A stretch of DNA of 63,369 nt, counting the filler, from Reticulomyxa filosa (taxonomy: Eukaryota > Protista > Foraminifera): the NCBI GenBank assembly GCA_000512085.1. It is 18 parts of 18 records of this genome, joined end to end, with 100 filler letters (N's around TTAATTAATTAA, not from the genome) between each part and the next. Parts side by side here need not be neighbours in the genome. Positions count along the whole stretch, not along the records: positions 1 to 1,000 come from ASPP01048193.1; 17 more parts are not named here. One strand, written 5' to 3'. The number at the start of each line of letters is the position of its first letter. Position 1 is the stretch's first letter. The position numbers and the translations under genes are program-made. The notes below the pieces were generated by a model that did not search any database, was not told the origin of the DNA, and saw only the letters and a list, made by a program, of their open reading frames with translations. Below are positions 44-47,899 of this stretch, in pieces.

Positions 44-178
44 TAATAATAGGATAAAATTCAAGATTCGGAAAAAAAGGATAGCCAAGTTCGGATTAGA
101 ATTTTTTTATCCACAAAATGATGTGTATTTTCTTATATTGTTTTTTTGTTTGTTTATTTGTTTTTAAAAAAAAAATAG

Positions 179-1000
179 GACAAAAGTAAACAAGAAATGG
201 AAACAAGTGAAGAAAAAGAACAATCGAAATCTGAAGAATTGAAAAAAGAAGACGAAAAAGTAGAAATTGGAGAGATCAGACCTGGGATCAATTTGCAAGG
301 CTATTGCATGAACAAAGATTGCTTAGCGGCAAATGCAAGACTTCCAGTATGGGTGAATGTAGACTTTACAAGCATTACATTGACATCTGCGAATACATCT
401 TATAAATGTCCTGATTGTGAAAAATCTACGGTTGTCTCGGTTATGAAGGTAATGTTTTTTAATTCCGAGCATTCAATTTATGCGAGTGATGGTTCGTCAC
501 ATGAAAAGGATTACAATTATCAGCGCACTTATCCAATTCAATCCGAATTGACATATACACTAAAAGCAAATAGAATTAAACAGCATGCAAATAGTTTGGA
601 AGATTTAATCACTAGAAGTGAGAGTGCAATGACAAGCATTGAGATTTTAAATTTGGTGGCAGAGTTACAAAAATATGGCATTACAGTTGTGAAACCACCA
701 AAGGTCAAAGATACAACAAGATTACATGAAAAGATTAACTGTGATTACGATGGAGATTTTAATCGGGTATTTGATGTAGGGAGATTTACCATTTTATGTG
801 ATAATAAAACTAAAATGCAAACAGCTGTAGAAGTAATGAAGAAGGCAGAAAAATTCAATTTGATTGTATCTGAAGATAAAGACTTTTTTGAAAAGCAATC
901 CAAAACGCATCATCGATTTCACAATATTAAATTATATGTACCAAAGTATGATGTATATGTAGAAATGCAAGCAACATTAAAGAGCTTCACAACATTGGAA
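179..1000 (+). CDS. Zn-binding (4-Cys) domain fused to RelA/SpoT-like nucleotidyltransferase domain; internal exon, 3'-truncated by contig end
   Basis: Acceptor AG at 177-178, in frame with ORF 197. N-terminal PGINLQGYCMNKDC...CPDC. Then RelA/SpoT-type motifs in the expected order: KVKDTTRLHEK, DYDGD...FDVGRFTI, KDFF...THHRFHNIKL, VEMQAT. Confidence 0.75.
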
Positions 1001-1494
1001 NNNNNNNNNNNNNNNNNNNNNNNNNNNNNNNNNNNNNNNNNNNNTTAATTAATTAANNNNNNNNNNNNNNNNNNNNNNNNNNNNNNNNNNNNNNNNNNNN
1101 ATTGATTGGTGGGCTCATCTTCTTTGGGAGTGCACAGTCTTTGACAAGCCTTTTCAATTCTGTGATTTCAATGCCACGACGAGTTTCATTACCCAATGCT
1201 CGACCTCGCTTTTGAGTAGATACAACTTGGACCAATCTGTGTGTTGAATCATTCCTGCTTTCGCGACTATGTCTTTGCCACTTTTGTTCAAGTCGATAAA
1301 TCGCGTCTGGTGTTCCCACAGTTAGGTCGTCGTCAAAACCTTGCACTTTTCTACTTTTCTCATCTCACCGTTTCGCTTTTGTTATTGGTAGTTTTTTTCT
1401 TATCATTGGTCGTTTGCTGTTGACGGAGTTGTAGTTGCCACAGTTGATGGCATCCTTATCATTTTTTGTCCTTGCGACTGTGACTGTGATAAAG

Positions 1495-3923: not shown

Positions 3924-4127
3924 TTGTAAAAGATTGCACTGACTCTTTATGATTTGAGATATTATTGAAATTTTTTGTTCAAATTATATATATATATNNN
4001 NNNNNNNNNNNNNNNNNNNNNNNNNNNNNNNNNNNNNNNNNTTAATTAATTAANNNNNNNNNNNNNNNNNNNNNNNNNNNNNNNNNNNNNNNNNNNNAAA
4101 AAAAAAAAAAAAAAAATTTCTCAAAAG

Positions 4128-5369
4128 TTGGACTCGAACGACGAGTTCGTGCGATACTCCGTGGTTCGTCCCAGAGACACAGAAGGGACGGCGTATGTCG
4201 TGTTTCGTGGCTCTCAGACCACTACCGACTGGCTGTCCAATTTGAACGCCATGCCTCTGAAGGTCAAAGAGTATGGATTTCGGGTCCATAGTGGTATGCA
4301 CGCACAATTGCAACATAAGGCTTTGGAAGAACTAATCGATCTATTTTTGACAGGTTTCTTTTTTTTTTTTTAAGTGTAACAAATTCGACATTTAATAAGC
4401 CCTTTTTTTTTTTTTTATTTATTGTTTGTTTCTCTTTCCTTGTTCTCCTTTCCCCTTTCTCCATCTTTGTCTTCTCCTAGGCAACCAAGAGAAATTGGTG
4501 ATAACAGGACATTCATTAGGAGCAGGGTACGCCGTCTTAGCAGCAGCTGATTTGCTGGGGGCACTTGGAATAAACTATCCCATGGCTGTGTACACATTTG
4601 GTGCACCGCTAGTTATTGAAAAAAACGCTGCGATTATCTCCGCTATTGGTTTGTAGTCTGTTTTTTTTTGTGGAAGAAAAAAAGAGCTTTTGTGAGAGAG
4701 AGAGAGAGAGAGATGCAAGAGAGGGATGCAAAGGGGGGGGGGAAATATTTGTTTTAATCGTTCTGTTACTCATACTTCAATTTCGAATGTTTCTATAGGT
4801 CGAATACTTGAAAAGATAGTGTACAACTTCGTCAATCAATTTGATGTGATTCCACGACTTCAGACAAGTGCGTCGTTCCCTTATTTGTCAAATCTCATCG
4901 GACAAACTGTTGATTTGATATTGAAGGGAAAAGGAGGCATTTTTGCATTGGGAGCCACTTTCCTTGATTTCCGACGACTAGGAGCTACACTCTTCAAAGA
5001 CAATTGCAATCTTGAAGTTTTTCACCTTTTTTTTTTATAGCTTCATATTCCTTACACTCTTTAAACAAAAAATAAACAATTTTTTTTTTTTTTGAAGAAA
5101 CTACACGAGTTATGCCAACAATCCTATGGACCCATCGGCAACTATTATTTGTTGTTTGACAAATATTTACCTTGCAAAGTGTCGAAATCTGAAATCTATG
5201 TGAGAGTTTGGAAGGAAGATGCCTAAAGATGGAAAGTGAAAAGTTATTGTCATTACTTCCAAAGTACAAGGAACTGCACCCTCTGGAACTCCATAGAGAT
5301 CATCGATCCTTCCATTATTATTGTAAAATCGCGTTTTTGGAAATGAATACCGCAAACAATGAAAATTGA
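4128..5369 (+). CDS. Class 3 lipase (alpha/beta hydrolase), 5'-truncated, spliced
   Basis: Exons about 4128-4353, 4481-4648, 4799-5016, 5098-5369. Motifs VVFRGS..DWLSN, VHSG, ITGHSLGAG (GxSxG), YTFGAP, FVNQFDVIPRL, YGPIGNY and C-terminal RDH..HY. One frameshift at an A-run near 5192. Confidence 0.9.
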
Positions 5370-14969: not shown

Positions 14970-16154
14970 CAACAGACTAAAGAAGAGATCCAAGTAATTG
15001 TAGGCAATTGGCTTCGGAATGTGTGTATCTATTGGGGATGGATTAATGAATTTAATCATATGATCGCAAAATATGTTTTGCAAAAATGTATTTTTTCTGT
15101 TGATGAAAAGTAATAAACACAATTGGTTAGGTTTTCTCAATAGGCCAGATATTTTGAGCAAATACAGTCATTCCAAATTCATGCATGTTCTGTCAATTGG
15201 GCTGAATTTTCTCCGGACGAGAGCAGTATTCTGGCATGCTATGGTGATGGGGTAATTCGTTTATGGGATATGAAATCAGCCAAAGTGTTGAAAACATTTG
15301 AAAGACATTCAAGTGATGTGTATAGGGCGAAATTTTCGCCAGATGGTGGCATTATTGTTTCATGTTCATCAGATAAAACCATTCGGTTGTGGAATGCATC
15401 ATCAGGGGAATTGATGAACATATTTGAAGGTCATTCAAACTCAGTGACCGATGTTATGTTTTCATTAGATGGCCGCACAATTTTTTCATGTTCTGAAGAT
15501 AAAACCATTCGTGCATGGGATATAGAGTCAGGACAACCAAAGAAAGTATTATATGGACATTCGGATTCAGTAATAGGATTGAAGCTTTCTCCTGATGGCT
15601 CCCACATTTTATCTTTTTCGTATGATCGAACAATTCGAATATGGGATGTAAACACACTTAATGTAGTCAAGAATTTGAGAGGCCATTCCGGATCGGTGGG
15701 CGATGCACAGTATTCGCCAGATGGCCTGACGCTTGTGTCGTGTTCCAGTGACTCCACAATTCGAATTTGGAATGTAAAAACAGGAAAGACAAAAATGGAA
15801 TTGGAGGGACATGAAGATGATGTAAATAGAGTGCAATTTTCGCCAAATGGCCTCACAATTATCTCGTCTTCGAGTGATTCGACACTTCGGTTATGGGATC
15901 TAACATCGGGAAAAGAGCTCCATAAATTTGAAGGGCATTCCGATGGTGTAAACGGGGCTCACTTTTCACCAGACGGCCATTGCGTCATATCATATTCAGA
16001 TGATAATACAATTCGGTTGTGGAATATTTATTCTGGAGAAGAGATTCAAACGTTGGCACAACATCTAAGTTTTGTAAGTCGAGCGATATTCTCAGCAGAT
16101 GGCAGTACCATCATGTCACACTCATTTGATGGAACAATTCGGTTATGGGGATAA
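14970..16154 (+). CDS. WD40-repeat protein (about 7-8 repeats)
   Basis: Repeated GHS..V..A.FSPDG..I.S.S.D.TIR.W units in ORF 15270-16154. Upstream exon EEIQVIVGNWLR...GWINEFNHMIAKY, then an intron at about 15074-15143. Start codon uncertain. Confidence 0.93.
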
Positions 16155-21627: not shown

Positions 21628-22400
21628 CCGTCACTTTTTTTTTTTTAATATTCGCTACTAATAATAATTAATAATTATAAACCAAACAACAATAAAATAA
21701 TACTTAAATGATTTTTTGTGTCAAAGTCCCAAAAACCATTGGTTGCCATTTGGTTTTGGATTTGGAGGTGTGGAACAACCATAACGTTAATAGTAGACAC
21801 ACAAATACAAAAGGGGCAAGAGAGGGGGGGGGAAAAAAAAAAGGGTACACTCTCATCAAAAGTTATTTTCTACAAAAAAAAATTTTTTGCAAAGGTTATA
21901 CCAGGGTTTTGCAAAAGAATTTTATTTGTTTTGTTCAAATTGACTTTTTGGGTTTATCAAGTCACAACAAACTTTTATTTTGTTGTTTTACATTAAAAAA
22001 ATATGCGACATGGAAAAGAAATTCGCTTTTCATATTACTTAGATTTATCAACCCCAAATTGACCGTGTAGCATATCATTTTTTTTTTCACTTTTGAAGAC
22101 TTTCATAACAGCAAAAATTAAAAACACAAGGAATCAACCAACTAACTCGATTAATGTGCAAACTAAAAGAAAAAAAGGGTCCAAACTCGAAATATATTTG
22201 GCAAGTACTTTGCAAACGAATAATTGAAAATGAATGAGAATAAATGCTGTGATGACGAAAAGACAAAAAAATGTGTAGAAAATACTTCCGATTCAACCGA
22301 AAATTTGAAGAAAGACGAAGCGAAAAAGGGACTGAGCTGCTTGTTTGAGTTAGGACAAAAGGAGATCATTTTGATGAGGGAGGGATTGAGATAAGAGCAT

Positions 22401-23291
22401 GTGATCGAACATATCGCAACGTACAACAAAAAAAGGCCTATTTCAATGCGTTCAATGCAAAAACAGAAAAGTAATGCAGCGCATGTCTCGCAAAGCTCGC
22501 AAAAAGAGTTATCGTCGTCACAACGACAGCTGTGGTTAATTCGGCACGGAGAACGAGCAGACGAATCGGACGAATTTGACAGTTGGGCGCGGACAGTACA
22601 TTCAGAGAGATGGTTCGATCCGCCATTGACGAAGACAGGGGCGTTGCAAGCACAGGGTCGTGGCGAGTTATTGAGCGAACACTTGAAAGGTCATGAAAAA
22701 TTGCACAACCAATTTTGGTCACGGGTTGTATACGTAAGCCCTTGTGAACGAACTTTACATACGGCATTTGAAATTGCCAAGGAATTGGTTCGATCCAACG
22801 AAGAAGAGGGATTTGGCGTCACTTTGGCAGTGCGTCCTGGGTTGGGGGAGTGTGCATCAGCCGTTCGTAAAACAGGCCTTTGTTCAACATTAGACGAAGA
22901 GTTGTGTCTTAAACCTGTTTTTTTCGACAACAAATGGTTTCCGAGTCGTTTTTTGAAAAAAAAAGAAATTTTAGAAAGATTTAATGTTTCTCCTTTCAAT
23001 GGCAAAACATGTAAAATTCGATGGCAATTTACTTATGATCACACAAGTGTCAGAGAAAATTTTTCACAGTGCGTCGATAACATAATGAAGGAAAACTACA
23101 AGTACAAGATTGCAATTTGTGTCACTCACAGAGAAGGAATTCGATGTTTGGATGATCGCTTATTTCGTGCTCGAGTTCCTTATTGTGCTTTGGTAAAGTA
23201 TTTGCATCATCCCCAACAAAGTTCACATCAAAGTCACTATTCAAATGCTCATGTTGCTCGAAAACAAGCTTTTGAATTTTTAACGGAGTGA
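22401..23291 (+). CDS. Histidine phosphatase / phosphoglycerate mutase family protein
   Basis: LWLIRHGERAD (RHG motif), DPPLTKTG..QA, VSPCERTLHTA, GLGE, ICVTHREGI. Intronless 296-aa ORF; start may be the ATG at 22446. Confidence 0.9.
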   Translation: MIEHIATYNKKRPISMRSMQKQKSNAAHVSQSSQKELSSSQRQLWLIRHGERADESDEFDSWARTVHSERWFDPPLTKTGALQAQGRGELLSEHLKGHEKLHNQFWSRVVYVSPCERTLHTAFEIAKELVRSNEEEGFGVTLAVRPGLGECASAVRKTGLCSTLDEELCLKPVFFDNKWFPSRFLKKKEILERFNVSPFNGKTCKIRWQFTYDHTSVRENFSQCVDNIMKENYKYKIAICVTHREGIRCLDDRLFRARVPYCALVKYLHHPQQSSHQSHYSNAHVARKQAFEFLTE

Positions 23292-24455: not shown

Positions 24456-26100
24456 ATGATGAATATGGATTTAAATGTATCGCATGACAACAGCAGAAAC
24501 CAAATGGAAAGCAAAAACAATCAAATAACACTATCTCCATATGTGATTGCTCGTAGGAAAAAGAGAAAATTATCTGATACTGTGGAAGAAGCATCTGGTT
24601 CTGATGTGCAAACACAAATGCACAAGAAGGTGCGAATTTCAAATCAGATTTTTTCGGGTAGCAGATCACGTGAAAGTGAAGATGAAAATGAAAATAAAAA
24701 TGAAAATGAAAAATCAAATGTAAATTTTGAAGATAAAAAGAAAAATGAAGAAATAAATTTGATAAATATAGAAAAGATGGATAGAAAAGAGAAACGGAAT
24801 ATTATTGTACAAATTTCCCAACATTGGTGATTACACCAGTAAATGGAAGAATATTATTGACTGGACCGGATCTTCTTAAATTCATTGGAGGAAATAAAAG
24901 TCAACTTTCCAAAATAATAAAATCACAAACATTTTCTATGAATTGGAGCACTGTATTCGTTCATTTTTCAGCTGAAATGAAAAAACAAGATTTGGAAGAA
25001 ATTATGAATCATTTCAACAAAAATATTCCAAAAGGTGATGATGAGATTGTCACAAAATGCACAATCTATCAGAAGAATTATGTGGAACAAGTGAAACATA
25101 AACGACAACAAGATGTTACAAATACAAATACCAATCGAAGAGTATTGATGAAAAATGTAGACGTAAATGAAACAACAACAAACATTCAGCAACTGCTTAA
25201 CAATTATGGTTACAATGTCGAAAGATTGGAACGTTTCAAAGGATTACCTGTAGTGAAATTAACAATGGGTAATAGTGAAGATGTGAATAAAATTCTTAAA
25301 GATGAAAATTTGTTCATTTGTTACAGAAAGACAAAGTGTGAATTATTTGATCCTTTCCGCAGTCGACCTCGTAGACATTTTAAACAATGTAAAAAATGTT
25401 ATCGCATCAATCATAACGCAGAAGAATGCATGAAAAAGAAAGAAACATGCAAATATTGTGGATTTAGCAATCATGATTCAAAGAATTGCAAACATAAAAA
25501 CAATCCAAGGAAATACTGTTACATATTATGTAAAGGACAACATGCAAGTGATTCCATAATTGTGAAGTGATTCGCACAACTCGTGAAAAACTTGGGATCA
25601 AAGTTACGCGTAAAGAAACAACAATATTTGAAAGAAATAAAAGCAAAATGCAAAACAATAAAATTGAAATCAAGATAGCACATTCCAACAACAATTACAA
25701 TAATAAAAATGAGAAAGTAATTCTCTCTAGAGATAAACAACATAAAGATACAGAAGTAAAATCATGGAATGATAGAGTTGCTGTACAAATGGAACAACCA
25801 AAAGATACACAAAACAATTTACAACAAACAAAAAACTTCCAGAAAAATCGTAGAAGTAGACAACGTTCTAATAAACAAAAACAAAATGAAAGTCAAAATG
25901 AGATTCAATATATCAAATCTGAATTGGCAGAATTACGATCGATGTTCAATGAATTCATGAAAGTATTCATTAACAACCAATCACAATCACAATCACAATC
26001 AAGATCACAATCTACTGTGGCAAATGTAAATGCAAATGCCATGTCCAACTCACAACAAATAGATGTAGTTAAAATGATTAATAATCTATTAATATTTTAG
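24456..26100 (+). pseudogene. LINE ORF1 (gag-like, zinc knuckles), frameshifted
   Basis: Split across ORFs 24456, 24824 and 25567. CKKCYRINHNAEEC, CKYCGFSNHDSKNC and (Y)ILCKGQHASDSII(C); Q/N-rich coiled-coil tail. Confidence 0.85.
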
Positions 26101-29100
26101 AACAACATCAACGGATTTTACTCCAAACAACACAAACTCGAACAAAATTTCAAGTACAAACAACATCATATTTGTTTGTTTCAAGAAGAATTTCGTTTTA
26201 ATAAGAAGGACATCGATTATCAGTTTCAATACCTTTACACCCATCATTGGAGTGAAACAGTGAGAACAGGAATCTTATGTAGAATAGACCTTCATTCTAT
26301 TCAACGAACATTTTCAAATACTCCAAATCAATTTGAAGAACTTGGTTTCGAATCTTGTTGGGTAGAAATATCATGTCCAGGACAAAAGAAACCAATCATT
26401 TTTTGTAGTTTCTATAGAAATATTCAAAGACATTCGGTTATGAGATGTTGTATTGGAATTCATTTTATCCAACAATTTGCATATTCTCAATTCACTTCCA
26501 TTTGATATTACATTTTTAAGAAATGGTAGTTCTTCAAGTATCGACATTACACTATGTTTGAATTCACTTCTACAATTATGTAGTAATTGGAGAACCGATG
26601 ATTACGAATTAGATGTTCTCCCAATAACATTCAATATTCAAGCACCTTGGTCGCAATCGAAGATTGAAAGACAGAAAATAGAGACATGGAATTTGTCAAG
26701 TAACAATTGTGAAATATTTCGAAGCCATTTGGAAACAAATCTCAAAATTTGGAAAGAAAACACACAACCAATCAATCCAAATGATCTAAAGACTCTAGAT
26801 GACACCGTAGAATCTTGGACAAAGTGCATTGTTGAGACTGGAAAATCTACTCTTGGAATGCGCACAGTTTGGAAAGGAAGCAAGTCATGGTGGAGTAACA
26901 AATTACACCAACAAAGAATTAAAATTAAAAAGAAAATTTCGCAAACATCGAACATCAATCAATTTTGCAAATTACAAACAGGCATCATGTCAGCTTCGTC
27001 GAAACTTGAGACAAGAAAAACATGAACACATGGTGAAAAGTATTAATTCAATGCACGAAGGAAATACGAAAATGATATTCTCCAAATTTCGTTCTCTTAA
27101 TTCCAACAAAATTTCAATTATTCCAGTATTGATAGATGAACAAACGAATAAAATTGCACATGCTGATATTGACAAAGTGAAATTGCTGGTTGATTCTTTT
27201 TCTCAACCTCCCCAACCACCAAATAATGCAATAAATTATACTGGATATTATCAATCTATTGAAAATGAAATTGCATCTGTATTTGCAATATTCAGAGATG
27301 AAGAAATGAAAAATAGAAGTGTGAATTTATGTGATAAACACCAATCAGAAATCACAGAAAGTGAAGTGATTGAAGCACTCAGACATATTTCATGTTATAA
27401 AGCACAAGGTCCAGATAATATTCATAACTTAATGCTAAAAAATGGTGGTGACTCAATACTTCAATCACTTGTATTCCTGCTTGGATGGAGTTTTCGAATG
27501 GGATACATGCCAAAATCATGGAAAATGGCAAATATTGTTCCAATTCCAAAACCAGATCGTGATCACAGTTTGACCAAAAATTACAGACCAATTGCCTTAC
27601 TTTCTAGAGTTGGAAAATTGATGGAGCGAATTATTCTACGAAGATTAATGTATTATTTGCACCAAAATAATCTATTAACCCCCAATCAAGCAGGTTTCCA
27701 GTCGAGGCAAAACACAGATGAATTCCTTCTCAGAATTACAGAAACAATTCACAAGTCATTCGACAAGAATGGTGTCACTTATGCAGTTTTATTGGATATC
27801 TCAGCTGCATATGATAGTGTTTGGAGAAATGGACTCAGATCAAAATTAAGTGAAGAATTTTATTTAAAAGGTAGATTATATTGGTGGATTGATAGTTTTC
27901 TTTCTGACAGAGTCGGAAGAGTGGTTATCAATGGTGCACATTCAGAATGGAAGAAATTCCACACTGGTGTTCCACAAGGATTAGCTTTATATCCACTATT
28001 ATTTCTTTTATATATTAATGACATTGCCACAACAGTTCCTGATCAAATTCAATGTGGAATATTTGCAGATGATGTTGCAATATGGAGTTCAATATTCACA
28101 AGCGATACCAATGAAATGCAAAATCAAATGAACAAAATGCAACGTTGTTTGGATAATATTTGTGAATGGGCAAATACATGGAAAATGGTTCTTGCTCCAG
28201 AAAAAACACAATGCATTACCTTCAGAAAAAAGAACAAGAAAAAGTATCCACCACTCCAACTTAATCTACAAGGCACACCAATTACTGAAACGGATAATGT
28301 TAGATATTTGGGACTTATCATGGATTCTCAATTAAATTATAATCGACATTTGAACTATGTATATGGAAAGGCATCACGCAACGTAGGATATCTGACATTC
28401 CTTTGTTCATACAAAGGAATTAGACCATCATTATCGGTGTATACATTACTCTTCAAAACGATTATTCGTCATTCTCTTGAATACGCATGTGCATTCTGGA
28501 ATGGTGCTGCAGAAATTCATAAAAAGAAGTTAGAGCTAATTCAAAGAATATCAATGTGTAGAATATTAGGTGTAATTCATGCAACTGCCTAAGATACAGT
28601 TAATGTCATTACACAAATTCCACTACTTGAATTAAGACGACAACAAGAAGAAGTTAAATTATACCAACGTTGCATTAAATGGTCTGGTAAATTTCACAAT
28701 CACAATCTAGTTCAAGCCTATCGAATGTGGGAAAAACACAAAATGACAACAAGTTCCAATTACATCTCATGGACAGGCAAACTATCGACATTATCTCGAG
28801 GCTGTATCCACGCAACTGAATTCAATGTTCCTGAAGTAAAACCTGATTTACAAATACATTACGCTACACCACCAATGCAATTATTAACTTTGCCGCATTC
28901 GGATAAATCACCATTGTAAAAACAAGAGAACCAACAACTGATCAAATATTGTTATCTCTAACCAATGATTGTGTTGTAATTTATTGTGATGGAAGTGCAT
29001 TTCCTAATCCTGGTTTTGGAGGTGCAGGATTAGTCGTCCAAGATCCATCACAACCACAATGGAAAGAACTTGAATTTCCGATAAATGGAATAACCGCAAA

Positions 29101-29917
29101 TTATAAATGCGAAATTGAAGCAATGAAGCAAGCACTTATTTATATACATACCAATTACACTCAAGCCGAAAATCGTGTTATTATTCTATGTGATTGCAAA
29201 TTTGTCATTAATACACTAATGAATAAATGGAATCCTGAAGACTATAAATATGAAATTGAAGAATGCCAACGAATACTCAAGACATTCAACAACAAAAATG
29301 TTACTGAAATTTATTGGATCAAAGGTCATTCTGAAATACCAGGAAATCACATAGCAGATATTGTTGCAAAAAGAGCAAGAATAAATGCAGAATTGAAACA
29401 ACCAGAATTGCATCAAGATATTGGGAAAACAACTTTTATAAATTGCCATGGATTAAACACTTCATTTATGACAGAGTGGAATCGTCATTGGATAAATGAA
29501 GGTAATGAAACCGCTATTCACAGAATTCCAAAAACATTTCTACCTGATCTCAAAGAAGCTCAAGCATTTGAAAGAACAGTTCTCCATCGACTTTCAGTAT
29601 CAGAACGGAGAGTTATTTGCAGAATGATCACTGGAAAAGTTGGATTAAATAAATATTTATACAAAATTCAAAAGATCGAAACACCATTTTGTGAATGGTG
29701 CGAAAACGAACCAGAAACCATTGAACATTTCTTGAAGAATTGTCCCAATTACACACAATTGCGTGAGAGATGGTGGACAAATGTCCAGAGATTGATACCA
29801 GATCATGCAGTTTCGTCCCTGAGTCTAAAAGACTTAGTGATTGGAAATAGAAGTTGGAAACCAGAAACTAGAGTGGCAGTGGTCAAAGAAAACAGCATCA
29901 TTTATTATCAAAACTAA
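26085..29917 (+). pseudogene. LINE ORF2: APE endonuclease, reverse transcriptase, RNase H and C-terminal CCHC; disrupted
   Basis: APE: NNING, LFQE, SFYR, SSIDITL. RT: KAQGPD, NYRPIALL, QAGF, LDISAAYD, GVPQG, FADD, YLG. RNase H: YCDGS, E, CDC, YWIKGH..PGNHIAD. C-terminal CEWC...ETIEHFLKNCP. In-frame stops at 28590 and 28917, frameshifts, and no APE GDxN segment. Confidence 0.92.
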
Positions 29918-34841: not shown

Positions 34842-35908
34842 GGCTTTGTTGCATGAATCAAGGTACAGACGTAGAACTGCCTTTCGTCAGAAAGTAGGCG
34901 AATTTTTTAGAGCAAGGCATACCGAGTCCTACCATTTTATTTAGAATATTTACTGCAATTTTACTTTCTGTTTTTTGACTTGAGAATGATCTCGACCTTA
35001 ATTTATTCCCTATAATTGTTTTGTACCTATACATTCCGTTTTCCGCTCTTGCACGTCTGCCGTAATCAGCATGCTTTTGCCATCGCTGCCTGCTTTTTTC
35101 AAAAACTCTAATGTTATCGACCCTTAACTTAGAATCCGTAGGCATTTCTGGCCTAAACCCGAGATTCGGAGGTATAGCGGCCTTTATTTCAAGACCATTG
35201 CCATACTTCTCTTGGTGCGCAATCATCGCATCATATACAGATGGTTGGTCATACGCGCCATCTCCTAACACTGTATCTATCGGACTACTAATTTGGTTGA
35301 GTAGGTTAGGTGCCGTTGCAGAGTCGCTTATATCGTGAAATGTCAATTCCGATCCCAATATTATGCCATGGTCATCTACCGCAATATACAGCTTTCTCCA
35401 GGATTTTCTGGTCTTAGTGAGTTTATATTTTTCTTTTTGCCACTCTTGCTCTCCATATATTTTCAAGCCGGTACTATCAATAAAAACTACTATCCCTTCA
35501 TCTCTACGTATCGCTGGCGCAGTAACGTTTATACTTTTGGATCTTCTTGAAATAGTAGTGAAATCTGGAACTTCTAACTCCAGCCCTAATAACTTAACAA
35601 TAGATTCTACCAATCTTTCTGTTTGACGAAGTCTCTGCCTAAATACAAAGCTCAAGGTTATGCATGTTTCGATAGAAAAATCGGAGTATAAGAGCTGCCC
35701 GCCACGCTTCCTTATTTTAAAAAAATCTACTTTCCATTTACTTATCACGTCGCTGGAAACCCAGATTGTTAGGCTGCCTCGATTTTTCAAACCTTCGTCA
35801 TATAGCCTTGAATTGCTTGGCTTATATAATGGCTTTTTGAATTTATCACGATAAGGCTCTTTAAGCTTGTATGGCATGATGTTCCACATTAATGATTGCT
35901 CTCAAAAA
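34842..35908 (-). mobile_element. Bacterial IS5-family, IS903-group insertion sequence (left end truncated)
   Basis: Intronless transposase. Terminal sequence GGCTTTGTTGCATGAATC at 34842-34859 matches the IS903 inverted repeat GGCTTTGTTGAATAAATC at 16 of 18 positions. Confidence 0.9.
34858..35877 (-). CDS. IS5/IS903-type DDE transposase
   Basis: MPYK...LKNRGSLTIW, RGGQLLYSD.SIE, LRQTE, VPDFTTISRR, IDSTGLK.YGE.EW, SWRKL, GDGAYD, YGRRARAE..MYRYK. Confidence 0.93.
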   Translation of the reverse strand: MPYKLKEPYRDKFKKPLYKPSNSRLYDEGLKNRGSLTIWVSSDVISKWKVDFFKIRKRGGQLLYSDFSIETCITLSFVFRQRLRQTERLVESIVKLLGLELEVPDFTTISRRSKSINVTAPAIRRDEGIVVFIDSTGLKIYGEQEWQKEKYKLTKTRKSWRKLYIAVDDHGIILGSELTFHDISDSATAPNLLNQISSPIDTVLGDGAYDQPSVYDAMIAHQEKYGNGLEIKAAIPPNLGFRPEMPTDSKLRVDNIRVFEKSRQRWQKHADYGRRARAENGMYRYKTIIGNKLRSRSFSSQKTESKIAVNILNKMVGLGMPCSKKFAYFLTKGSSTSVP

Positions 35909-46290: not shown

Positions 46291-46860
46291 TCACAAGTAA
46301 ACCTTTTTCCAAGGTTTATCTGGCCCCCCAAGGCGAATTTTTGTACGTGATTTTTTGACACAACAAGCTTACTTTCGCATGTTGTTTGACCCACCTATTT
46401 AAAAAAAGTCAAAAAAAAATGTTTCATAAAAAGCTATGAACAAATGAAAAATGTTTATCCAAAAAAAAAAAAAAAGAAAAAAAGGGGAAGGGAAATGTAC
46501 ACATTAACAAACAAATACCAGAAAATGCCAGCGGCAGTGAGACTCCAAACGACACCGACAGCGCCAATTTGTTTTTGTGCGTCTAAGTCTCTGTGAAGGG
46601 TCCAATTGAAGAATTCGGCGACATCTTTGGCCATTTGGGAGACAGTGGCAGGAGTGCCATCAGGGTAGTTGACCATTCCGTCTCTCAAAGGAGGAGGCAT
46701 GCTGATGACCCCACCTTCAAAAAATGCATTGAAAGCTTGGCCCTGGCCAAGTACAACCCCAGGAGGGATTTCATCTCCATATCCTGTCAACAAAGAAAAC
46801 ACATAATTCACTCCTCCTTCACGAGCACCGGCGATTAATGATAAATCAGGGGGTACCGCA

Positions 46861-46861
<1 letters not shown>
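46291..46861 (-). CDS. CYC1: Mitochondrial cytochrome c1, C-terminal exons
   Basis: GAVPPDLSLI..AREGG.NYVFSLLTGY, FNAFFEGGVISMPPPL (Met ligand), YPDGTPATVSQMAKDVAEF and TM anchor. Exons 46861-46519 and 46394-46291. Confidence 0.95.
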
Positions 46862-46899
<38 letters not shown>

Positions 46900-47899
46900 N
46901 NNNNNNNNNNNNNNNNNNNNNNNNNNNNNNNNNNNNNNNNNNNTTAATTAATTAANNNNNNNNNNNNNNNNNNNNNNNNNNNNNNNNNNNNNNNNNNNNT
47001 TGTGACCAAGACATGATGGACCCTGATGGATTCACAATGATTATGCCGAGTATGTGTTGGGAAGTCGGACGTTACTCCTGACAGTGTCAATATTTTGAGT
47101 TTGCTTTGAAAGGACATGCAACTTTGGACCGGGTTATACGGATTGCATGGCAAAGATTCACGAGTGTGAATGATACAATATTGGTCCCCGATTTTGCGAG
47201 GACATGCGTCCTCATCATTTGTCATCGTCGTCCTCGTCATCAGATTCATCGCGCGATAATTCCGAATGCGACAACGTGAACCTTTGTATTTGGAGAGCAT
47301 GTGCGAAGATATTGGACTTAGTTGACCCCTGAACGGTCGATTGAATATATCGTCGTTGTATATGCTATTTATGACAATACTATTGTCGGCGAGTAACACA
47401 AGCAGCAATTTGACTAACCGGCAGTGCAAATATGACAATTCACATGTTCCATTGTGAACGATACTGCCATTGGCTGGATTCGCAATCACATCATAGACTA
47501 AACACATACCTGCTGTCAAGTACTCAAGATACAATACCTATGTTGTTGTGCATTCCAATTACTGGCATTTTGAAAATTTGAACGTTAGCCTGGTGAGTCT
47601 AAACTCTGACATGTGTTGAAAAATTAAATAACGGTGGAAAAAAACAGTTGATGCAACATTGGGCGTATGTTCAGATGCATCAACTTTGGCAACACAAGTC
47701 GTTGTTACTATTCCTAATCCTTGCATTGACAGTTATCTTTGGAGAATGGGCCCTTGCCAACTTGTGGCAGCGCTTGCGACCGTATGTTGGAGTGCGTATA
47801 TCATTTTTGTACTCAGTGTCGTTGCGGCAGCAAAATGAAGTTCATCATGTCAGCATTATATGAAGAAGCAAGAAATACTCGACTTGCAAAGAGATGACA

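Follow-up and report, generated by a model that had tools for sequence, protein, structure and literature searches.

Several described systems bear on the gene reported here. Tas1 (Apk1; structure 6OX6), Apk2 and the Apk1-like enzymes are bacterial (p)ppApp toxins and, more widely, exported alarmone synthetases (PMC10083569, PMC12691689). A domain from the foraminifer Reticulomyxa filosa, a giant freshwater amoeba, shares with them the RelA/SpoT-type synthetase (SYNTH) fold, the K-x3-R-x3-K, YxGD and DxxR motifs, an Asn at the Syn3 His position and an ExQ motif without the Arg; it also lies on their side of a phylogenetic tree, although the AU test does not reject the alternative (p=0.066). 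Whereas the bacterial enzymes form the C-terminal tip of a toxin, the foraminiferan domain belongs to a spliced eukaryotic gene family in which the enzyme lies N-terminal to a STAND ATPase. It also differs in its HHRF acceptor loop and in having no eCIS/WXG delivery domain; its short contig shows no Tis1 or hydrolase gene beside it, and a Pfam scan of the protein studied here (P0001) and seven paralogues gave no PAAR or MuF domain.

Among eukaryotes, fungal NLR-like proteins with RelA_SpoT domains, mentioned in the initial annotation of this DNA, are indeed listed, as a rare RelA_SpoT-NACHT-WD40 class with putative ppGpp synthesis (PMC4986451, PMC12258605, PMC9815663). The order of effector, NACHT and WD40 is the same as in R. 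filosa (PMC4986451; PMC12258605), but the foraminiferan proteins add a 4-Cys module and pentapeptide repeats, and whereas the fungal form makes up <1% of annotated N-termini, with 14 T-NACHT cases in Sordariales, R. filosa has >100 records. The HET-E/HET-D/NWD proteins of Podospora (PMC1805685) are alike in their NACHT, in about 14 highly similar WD40 repeats, in forming a multigene family with broken members, and in hypervariable surface positions, two pairs of which are 18 residues apart; their effector, however, is a HET (TIR-like) or amyloid domain backed by genetics, whereas the foraminiferan effector is an alarmone synthetase known from sequence. Bacterial NACHT/Avs antiphage receptors (bioRxiv 10.1101/2022.07.19.500537) have the same layout of enzymatic N-terminal effector, NACHT and repeats, and differ from the foraminiferan family in that the latter is eukaryotic and a lineage-specific expansion. 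The same preprint argues for NACHT transfer from intracellular bacteria, and its available text does not mention Reticulomyxa, Rhizaria or foraminifer; a PADLOC search with P0001 gave no meaningful match. The known eukaryotic RSHs, namely the plant plastid long RSH, Mesh1 and the divRel SAS of Dictyostelium, fungi and diatoms (PMC3153485), likewise place an RSH-superfamily domain in a eukaryote, probably through horizontal transfer, but the foraminiferan proteins differ in their NACHT-WD40 fusion, their Apk-type signatures and the lack of an HD hydrolase (7/79 rescanned). Eukaryotes are not mentioned in the available text of PMC12691689. Literature searches returned nothing on Reticulomyxa with NACHT, or with RelA and NACHT, and nothing joining RelA SpoT polymorphic toxins, eukaryotes and NACHT, although the sequence lists of the genome, Tas1 and Apk2 (Bartoli et al.) papers may include such proteins. 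A Tas1/Apk-type effector on an enzyme-armed NLR-like receptor, here with a large foraminiferan expansion, is apparently unreported.

The window, that is, the whole stretch of DNA analysed (63,369 nucleotides), is made up of 18 contigs of 1-10 kb with N-TTAATTAATTAA-N linkers between them. As the contigs are joined artificially, the DNA past position 1000 is no true neighbourhood of the gene. Contig 1 (positions 1-1000, 30% GC) is filled by the candidate gene, the features of which are listed below with residues counted from nt 179; the initial annotation started at the ATG at nt 197, an offset of 6, so that its D193 and E256 are D199 and E262 here.

53..88, plus strand: probable upstream mini-exon of 12 codons (36 nt), preceded by AG at 51-52
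89..178, plus strand: probable intron of 90 nt, phase 0, GT..AG, its 3' end T-rich and then A-rich
179..1000, plus strand: coding exon of P0001, 274 codons, a single open frame ended by the contig end
281..580, plus strand: all-beta module, likely Zn-binding, with Cys C43, C48, C77 and C80 (conserved Cys and model)
281..307, plus strand: PGINLQGYC in the translated exon
407..418, plus strand: CPDC in the translated exon
587..1000, plus strand: SYNTH core (RelA/SpoT-type synthetase), apparently of the Tas1/Apk type, covering aa 137-274 and lacking the C-terminal helices
701..757, plus strand: Syn1, whose K177, R181 and K185 are assigned to the phosphates of the ATP donor, and the YxGD motif characteristic of the Apk clade
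701..733, plus strand: KVKDTTRLHEK in the translated exon
743..757, plus strand: DYDGD in the translated exon
770..793, plus strand: Syn2, with the predicted catalytic, Mg-binding D199 and with R202, aligning with RelSeq D264 and Tas1 KDLAR
770..793, plus strand: FDVGRFTI in the translated exon
878..889, plus strand: KDFF in the translated exon
905..934, plus strand: Syn3/acceptor loop, reading HHRFHN; N249 coincides with the Asn of Tas1, and H244-H245..F247 are foraminiferan-specific
905..934, plus strand: THHRFHNIKL in the translated exon
959..976, plus strand: Syn4, with predicted catalytic E262 (77/77 paralogues) and Q264, and no Arg following
959..976, plus strand: VEMQAT in the translated exon
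1001..1100, no strand: artificial N-linker between joined contigs

The exon had been placed behind a eukaryotic intron, and the sequence agrees: the frame 179-1000 is open, an AG acceptor stands at 177-178 and a GT at 89, from which we infer that 89-178 is spliced out behind the mini-exon. The mini-exon peptide is similar to the N-terminus of a relative (P0119), read-through from it meets a stop at 119-121, and the database gene model of the same contig (P0146) likewise begins at nt 179. Every motif named in the initial annotation was located where it had been put, in one open frame, and the C-terminus is lost as described, with contig 1 ending at aa 274.

Other contigs of the window hold unrelated features. 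An intronless bacterial-type IS5 transposase (DDE_Tnp_1_5) at 34858-35901 (minus strand) fills a 1.1-kb contig (34769-35908), is about 42% identical to an alphaproteobacterial plasmid IS5 and possibly derives from a co-assembled symbiont or contaminant. A broken non-LTR retrotransposon lies at 24785-29917 (plus strand), with a gag-like Cys/His ORF, reverse transcriptase and RNase H in separate frames. At 15144-16154 (plus strand) there is a single-exon WD40 protein whose 8 HET-E-like repeats share 44-48% identity with those of the family described below; tblastn found no NACHT near it. Ordinary-looking genes occupy 4098-5040, 22395-23291, 46455-46943 and 60724-61335 and comprise lipase-like pieces and histidine phosphatase, cytochrome c1-like and HPRT-like ORFs, of which the lipase-like, cytochrome c1-like and HPRT-like identities were assigned by eye.

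An AlphaFold2 model of P0001 from 78 sequences reaches a pLDDT of 89.6 and a pTM of 0.80. When it was compared with 48,161 chains, the top 10 matches were RSH synthetases only, all over residues 137-274 (Z 10.0-14.3, rmsd 2.3-4.6, 122-134 residues aligned), and the next row, a non-RSH protein, scored 8.4. These matches include B. subtilis RelP (14.3) and Rel (13.5), S. aureus RelP (12.6), RelQ (12.5), Tas1 (12.0), CapRel (7ZTB; 11.8) and SaEAS (10.8); that to Tas1 (rmsd 2.4, 126 aligned) has the highest identity of the ten, 20%. Foldseek likewise puts RSH synthetases first. The model of a longer paralogue (P0006) can be aligned with Tas1 over 172 residues, among them those of the helices that are missing from the window.

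The active site was compared across the family, for which 106 records were examined; 77 of them span Syn1-4 without gaps at the key sites. K177, R181, K185, D199, R202, R246, N249, E262 and Q264 are all present in P0001 and in 72/77 paralogues, D199 being retained in 76/77 and E262 in 77/77. D199 and E262 align with D264 and E323 of RelSeq, which we take to be its catalytic residues, an assignment that fits D121 of SaEAS. The spacing of D199 and R202 is also comparable to that of D121 and R124 in SaEAS (PMC12691689). The initial annotation had named two findings that would have spoken against it, a search without a RelA fold and a lack of conservation of the Asp and Glu; neither occurred. Sequence and model together confirm a Syn1-4 synthetase fold with an intact active site, for which pyrophosphokinase activity is predicted. 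Pfam RelA_SpoT (PF04607) matches P0001 with E=1.4e-4 and 22.5 bits, the curated cut-off being 27; this cut-off is reached by P0002 (30.2, two copies) and P0083 (27.0), and bacterial Apk-like toxins score 21-31. NCBIfam gave no match for P0001, and in the ESM Atlas the scores for the synthetase region are all <0.9. As the initial annotation had observed for this fragment, a hydrolase is missing, with no HD domain in P0001 or in seven rescanned paralogues (of 79), and a plastid-type long RSH was rejected for want of an HD hydrolase beside SYNTH in these eight proteins.

Several lines of evidence bear on the lineage of the synthetase. The sole PDB sequence match of P0001 is Tas1 (E=0.0056), and a mixed profile, which itself contains Apk-like rows, finds Tas1 at 4e-20 and the next match at 3e-7. 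HMMs made from bacterial loci only score the domain at 54.6 bits for the Apk-like group (20 loci), 34.7 for the Tas1-like (6) and 17.8 for the canonical (12); the best of 1000 shuffles reaches 9.3 bits with the Apk-like HMM, and no shuffle exceeds 9.7 bits. In a tree of 55 domains and 133 columns, which has several long branches and Apk-like rows gathered by likeness to the query, the Apk side is split from 12 canonical RSH/SAS by a 100/99 branch; the 11 foraminiferan rows cluster with 100/99 support and join P0117 and P0121, again at 100/99, on the Apk side. A clade of foraminiferan and canonical RSH/SAS domains is nevertheless compatible with the AU test (p=0.066). The tree was built without fungal, FaRel, SaEAS, RelV and Apk2 sequences; it also leaves aside the (near-)duplicates P0118, P0128, P0126, P0053, P0073, L008-L010, L017, L018, L021 and L022, the partial P0129 and P0166, and the unextracted L001, L025, L028, L029 and L031. 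P0117 and P0121 are the closest non-foraminiferan sisters in it, and P0117, with its signal-peptide-like start and TPR repeats, resembles a secreted effector of an intracellular bacterium.

A residue table places R181, YxGD, R202 (in DxxR) and the lack of an Arg at 266 among features common to the Apk clade, and N249 among those common to Tas1 orthologues. Of the residues that the initial annotation had considered odd, the R for S in Syn1 and the QAT in Syn4 are therefore normal for the Tas1/Apk clade, and only HHRF in place of GYRD/GYSG proved peculiar to the foraminiferan proteins. That the Syn1 Arg and the loss of Arg after EMQ are clade-typical points the product towards (p)ppApp and not tRNA; that H244, H245 and F247 are foraminiferan-specific (Tyr takes the H245 position in 12/77 paralogues) and line the acceptor loop suggests that specificity may have shifted.

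A HMMER search with aa 126-274 against 1.84 billion representatives gave 62 hits. Those beyond the foraminiferan type are 26-43% identical tip domains (31/62 rescanned) on proteins with eCIS_core, Phage_Mu_F (MuF), DUF4781, TPR and NUDIX domains, the same delivery classes as are given for Apk1-like exported synthetases (PMC12691689). A fungal-type NACHT protein was found neither among these 62 nor among 61 long-protein hits, which hints at a separate origin, the tree being without fungal domains. A first scan of genome contigs returned 0/69 relatives and tblastn of the domain against phage records no match; a profile scan with the bacterial alignment A4 found 22 bacterial loci of the Apk-like group. 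Among the loci, L015 encodes PAAR-Tas1, Tis1 and HD, and L004, L007 and the phage locus L038 each combine the toxin with an ORF of about 80 aa and an HD hydrolase, a layout described for Apk2 (PMC10083569). Taken together, and given the AU result and the biased sampling, the domain is apparently of the Tas1/Apk secreted-toxin type as judged from these comparisons, not of the RelA/RelP/RelQ type, and was probably acquired from a bacterial secreted toxin. Apk-like domains also occur in four eukaryotic-looking proteins (P0124, P0125, P0129, P0166) with TPR_10 arrays or EF-hand-like or multi-TM regions, which suggests further eukaryotic captures.

The module that precedes the synthetase has a confident beta fold in the AlphaFold2 model of P0001, and each of its four Cys residues is retained in 70-71/77 paralogues; Zn binding is likely. 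A Pfam scan of the module alone gave no match and a PDB sequence search weak C2H2 matches at most; in the structure search with the P0001 model it drew a single beta-sandwich match (Z 5.7). Look-alikes are found in rotifer hypothetical proteins (score 0.91-0.94) and probably also in ubiquitin-fused giant-virus proteins.

The initial annotation had supposed that the fragment is the N-terminal effector of an NLR/STAND-like receptor, and full-length paralogues do carry NACHT and WD40 domains. All 79 longer homologues, from 1,501 candidates, are labelled R. filosa, with identities of 47-92% in the part that matches. Walker A occurs in 66/79, Walker B in 65/79 and >=5 WD motifs in 42/79, many of the homologues without NACHT or WD motifs being partial records. 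PF05729 (NACHT) exceeds its cut-off in P0002, P0034 and P0052, and the WHD motif FxH[KR]S occurs in 32/33 full-length members. The closest full-length paralogue (P0003, 82%) comprises the 4-Cys module, synthetase, a helical region, NACHT, a pentapeptide-like stretch and 14 WD40 repeats; P0003 and P0008 have 13-14 such repeats. Variations on this plan exist: RFI_08856 (P0002), which also has a precomputed PF27609 match, carries two tandem 4-Cys and synthetase units, the first seemingly part-degenerate, before one NACHT, and P0072 (vcbs repeat-containing) has the two domains at the C-terminal end, behind a signal-peptide-like start, a repeat ectodomain and a hydrophobic segment and without NACHT, possibly a surface-receptor version. 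Profile searches found at least 115 R. filosa records among the best 120 of 147 matches; these counts are of records, not loci, with fragments and alleles among them. Three matches (P0142, P0147, P0151) were dropped as WD40-only, because profile A1 spanned whole proteins.

Conservation is graded along the protein. Mean pairwise identity among the 33 full-length members is 0.77 for the synthetase, 0.67 for NACHT, 0.62 for the 4-Cys module and 0.52 for WD40. Over 362 repeats, the three most variable of the 42 repeat positions reach 4.06, 3.91 and 3.50 bits; two of them flank the conserved V/I after GH, and one precedes the invariant Asp. WD40 proteins in general vary at top-face positions. In the Podospora HET-E family (NWD), four codons of the repeat, namely 7, 9, 25 and 27, are under diversifying selection (PMC1805685). 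Mapped by spacing and flanking conserved sites, the top three sites correspond to Podospora codons 7, 9 and 25, and the site equivalent to codon 27 is of moderate variability (2.39 bits). Judged by sequence variation, the WD40 surface has the pattern of a recognition receptor family. Three environmental sequences (P0083, P0086, P0092), 41-56% identical to P0001, belong to the same clade and have their motifs intact, and a metagenome scan yielded 1 relative (L001) among 504 pattern matches; its gene (L001:209-964, P0101) is probably spliced, has lost Syn1 and the Syn2 Asp and Arg, and stops after Syn4. The family thus reaches beyond one strain.

On these grounds we lean, by a slim margin, towards a family of the order 4-Cys, Tas1/Apk-type synthetase, helical linker, NACHT, pentapeptide repeats and about 14 WD40 that is likely to serve as an NLR-like immune or non-self receptor, with the synthetase as predicted killing effector making (p)ppApp. 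The observations beneath this reading are the paralogue architecture, the fold, the intact active site, the signals of Apk kinship, the variable WD40 surface and the conservation gradient. By analogy with known systems, a foreign ligand would bind the WD40 double propeller and lift the auto-inhibition of NACHT, which would swap ADP for ATP and oligomerise. The synthetase, freed from auto-inhibition, would then pyrophosphorylate a purine nucleotide (most likely ATP, ADP or AMP) at its 3'-OH, with ATP as the donor, to give (p)ppApp. ATP would be drained as with Tas1, and the affected part of the multinucleate cell or network would be arrested, killed or isolated. To our knowledge, cell death through cytosolic (p)ppApp synthesis and ATP collapse is not yet shown in any eukaryote. 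Tas1 serves as the model for (p)ppApp build-up with a fall in ATP (PMC11782079, PMC7229694).

The weakest step of this mechanism is the identity of the product, which kinship does not fix: among the Apk1-like enzymes, VpEAS and AaEAS synthesise (p)ppGpp exclusively, and SaEAS produces both alarmones (PMC12691689). The same gated receptor could instead make (p)ppGpp or a mixed alarmone, used as a diffusible messenger or to attack bacteria that have been ingested or live as endosymbionts, in place of an ATP-draining suicide; this we consider unlikely, despite structural scores for RelP, Rel and RelQ that match or top that of Tas1 (Z 14.3, 13.5 and 12.5 vs 12.0) and an acceptor loop that differs from every bacterial row of the residue table, since two residues present in 5/5 canonical rows shown, the Syn3 His and the Arg that follows ExQ, are missing from the domain, and the genes beside its nearest bacterial relatives are reminiscent of the (p)ppApp operon of Apk2. 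An RNA 3' end (tRNA CCA) or another non-nucleotide acceptor, with the 4-Cys module aiding binding, is distinctly less probable. FaRel2, PhRel and CapRel pyrophosphorylate tRNA CCA, and the match to CapRel (7ZTB, Z 11.8), the unusual His-rich acceptor loop and the additional N-terminal module would suit such a role. However, Phrann gp29 (L032), presumably a tRNA-type enzyme and the only one in the tree, groups with the canonical sequences and at a great distance from the foraminiferan ones. Nor does the available text of PMC12691689 mention a tRNA-targeting Apk1-like member. A catalytically dead domain with a nucleotide-binding or scaffold role, for example as an alarmone decoy or sensor, is very improbable and was rejected as the main reading: His replaces the acceptor-stacking Tyr in 65/77 paralogues and the Pfam score is under the cut-off, but the Mg- and ATP-binding residues are near-invariant and the synthetase is the most conserved region.

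A separate alternative, independent of the product, concerns this copy. Contig 1 ends at aa 274. RFI_02452 (P0138), possibly an allele or a recently duplicated copy, is 181/183 identical to the window protein; it is found on a contig of 5,404 bases and is annotated as complete at 355 aa without NACHT. The NLR architecture is accordingly a demonstrated feature of the family but not of this copy. The annotated end of RFI_02452 corresponds to residue 478 of P0003, whose Walker A follows some 45 residues later (524), and could reflect a genuine stop codon, a frameshift or a faulty gene model, the model also being without the N-terminal 91 residues. At least eight other complete-annotated models have no NACHT (P0037, P0050, P0059, P0072, P0074, P0134, P0139, P0087), several models besides that of RFI_02452 terminate at residues 473-502, and the environmental P0101 is degenerate. 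The gene in the window might thus be effector-only, truncated or decaying, either a remnant of birth-and-death evolution or a module that stands alone and is switched on in trans. We regard this as rather unlikely, though the strongest of the alternatives, given the fragmented assembly with its rough gene models, the intact 274-codon frame with all nine key residues, and the presence of NACHT in most longer members. Bacterial contamination with an ordinary polymorphic toxin, by comparison, is effectively refuted: the nearest non-foraminiferan relatives are bacterial toxins and a bacterial-type IS5 contig lies elsewhere in the window, but the upstream DNA is AT-rich and intron-like, the contig has 30% GC, and >100 R. 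filosa records are 47-99% identical.

Returning to the reading of an NLR-like receptor family armed with a Tas1/Apk-type synthetase, its fullest form, in which about 100 foraminiferan receptors share a domesticated bacterial (p)ppApp toxin, perhaps from an intracellular symbiont, and couple WD40 sensing to (p)ppApp synthesis and ATP collapse, is put forward tentatively. Cytosolic alarmone synthesis in plastid-free eukaryotes is a long-standing question, and RelA_SpoT-NLR fusions have so far existed as annotation only, in fungi; here the active site of the effector is intact, its bacterial toxin lineage can be identified, and the expansion within one genome is large. If the reading is true, R. 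filosa would be a eukaryote in which (p)ppApp serves as a signal in immunity or death, and the family would show clearly how a toxin used between bacteria has been domesticated as the effector of an NLR, besides offering the first molecular handle on foraminiferan immunity or non-self recognition.
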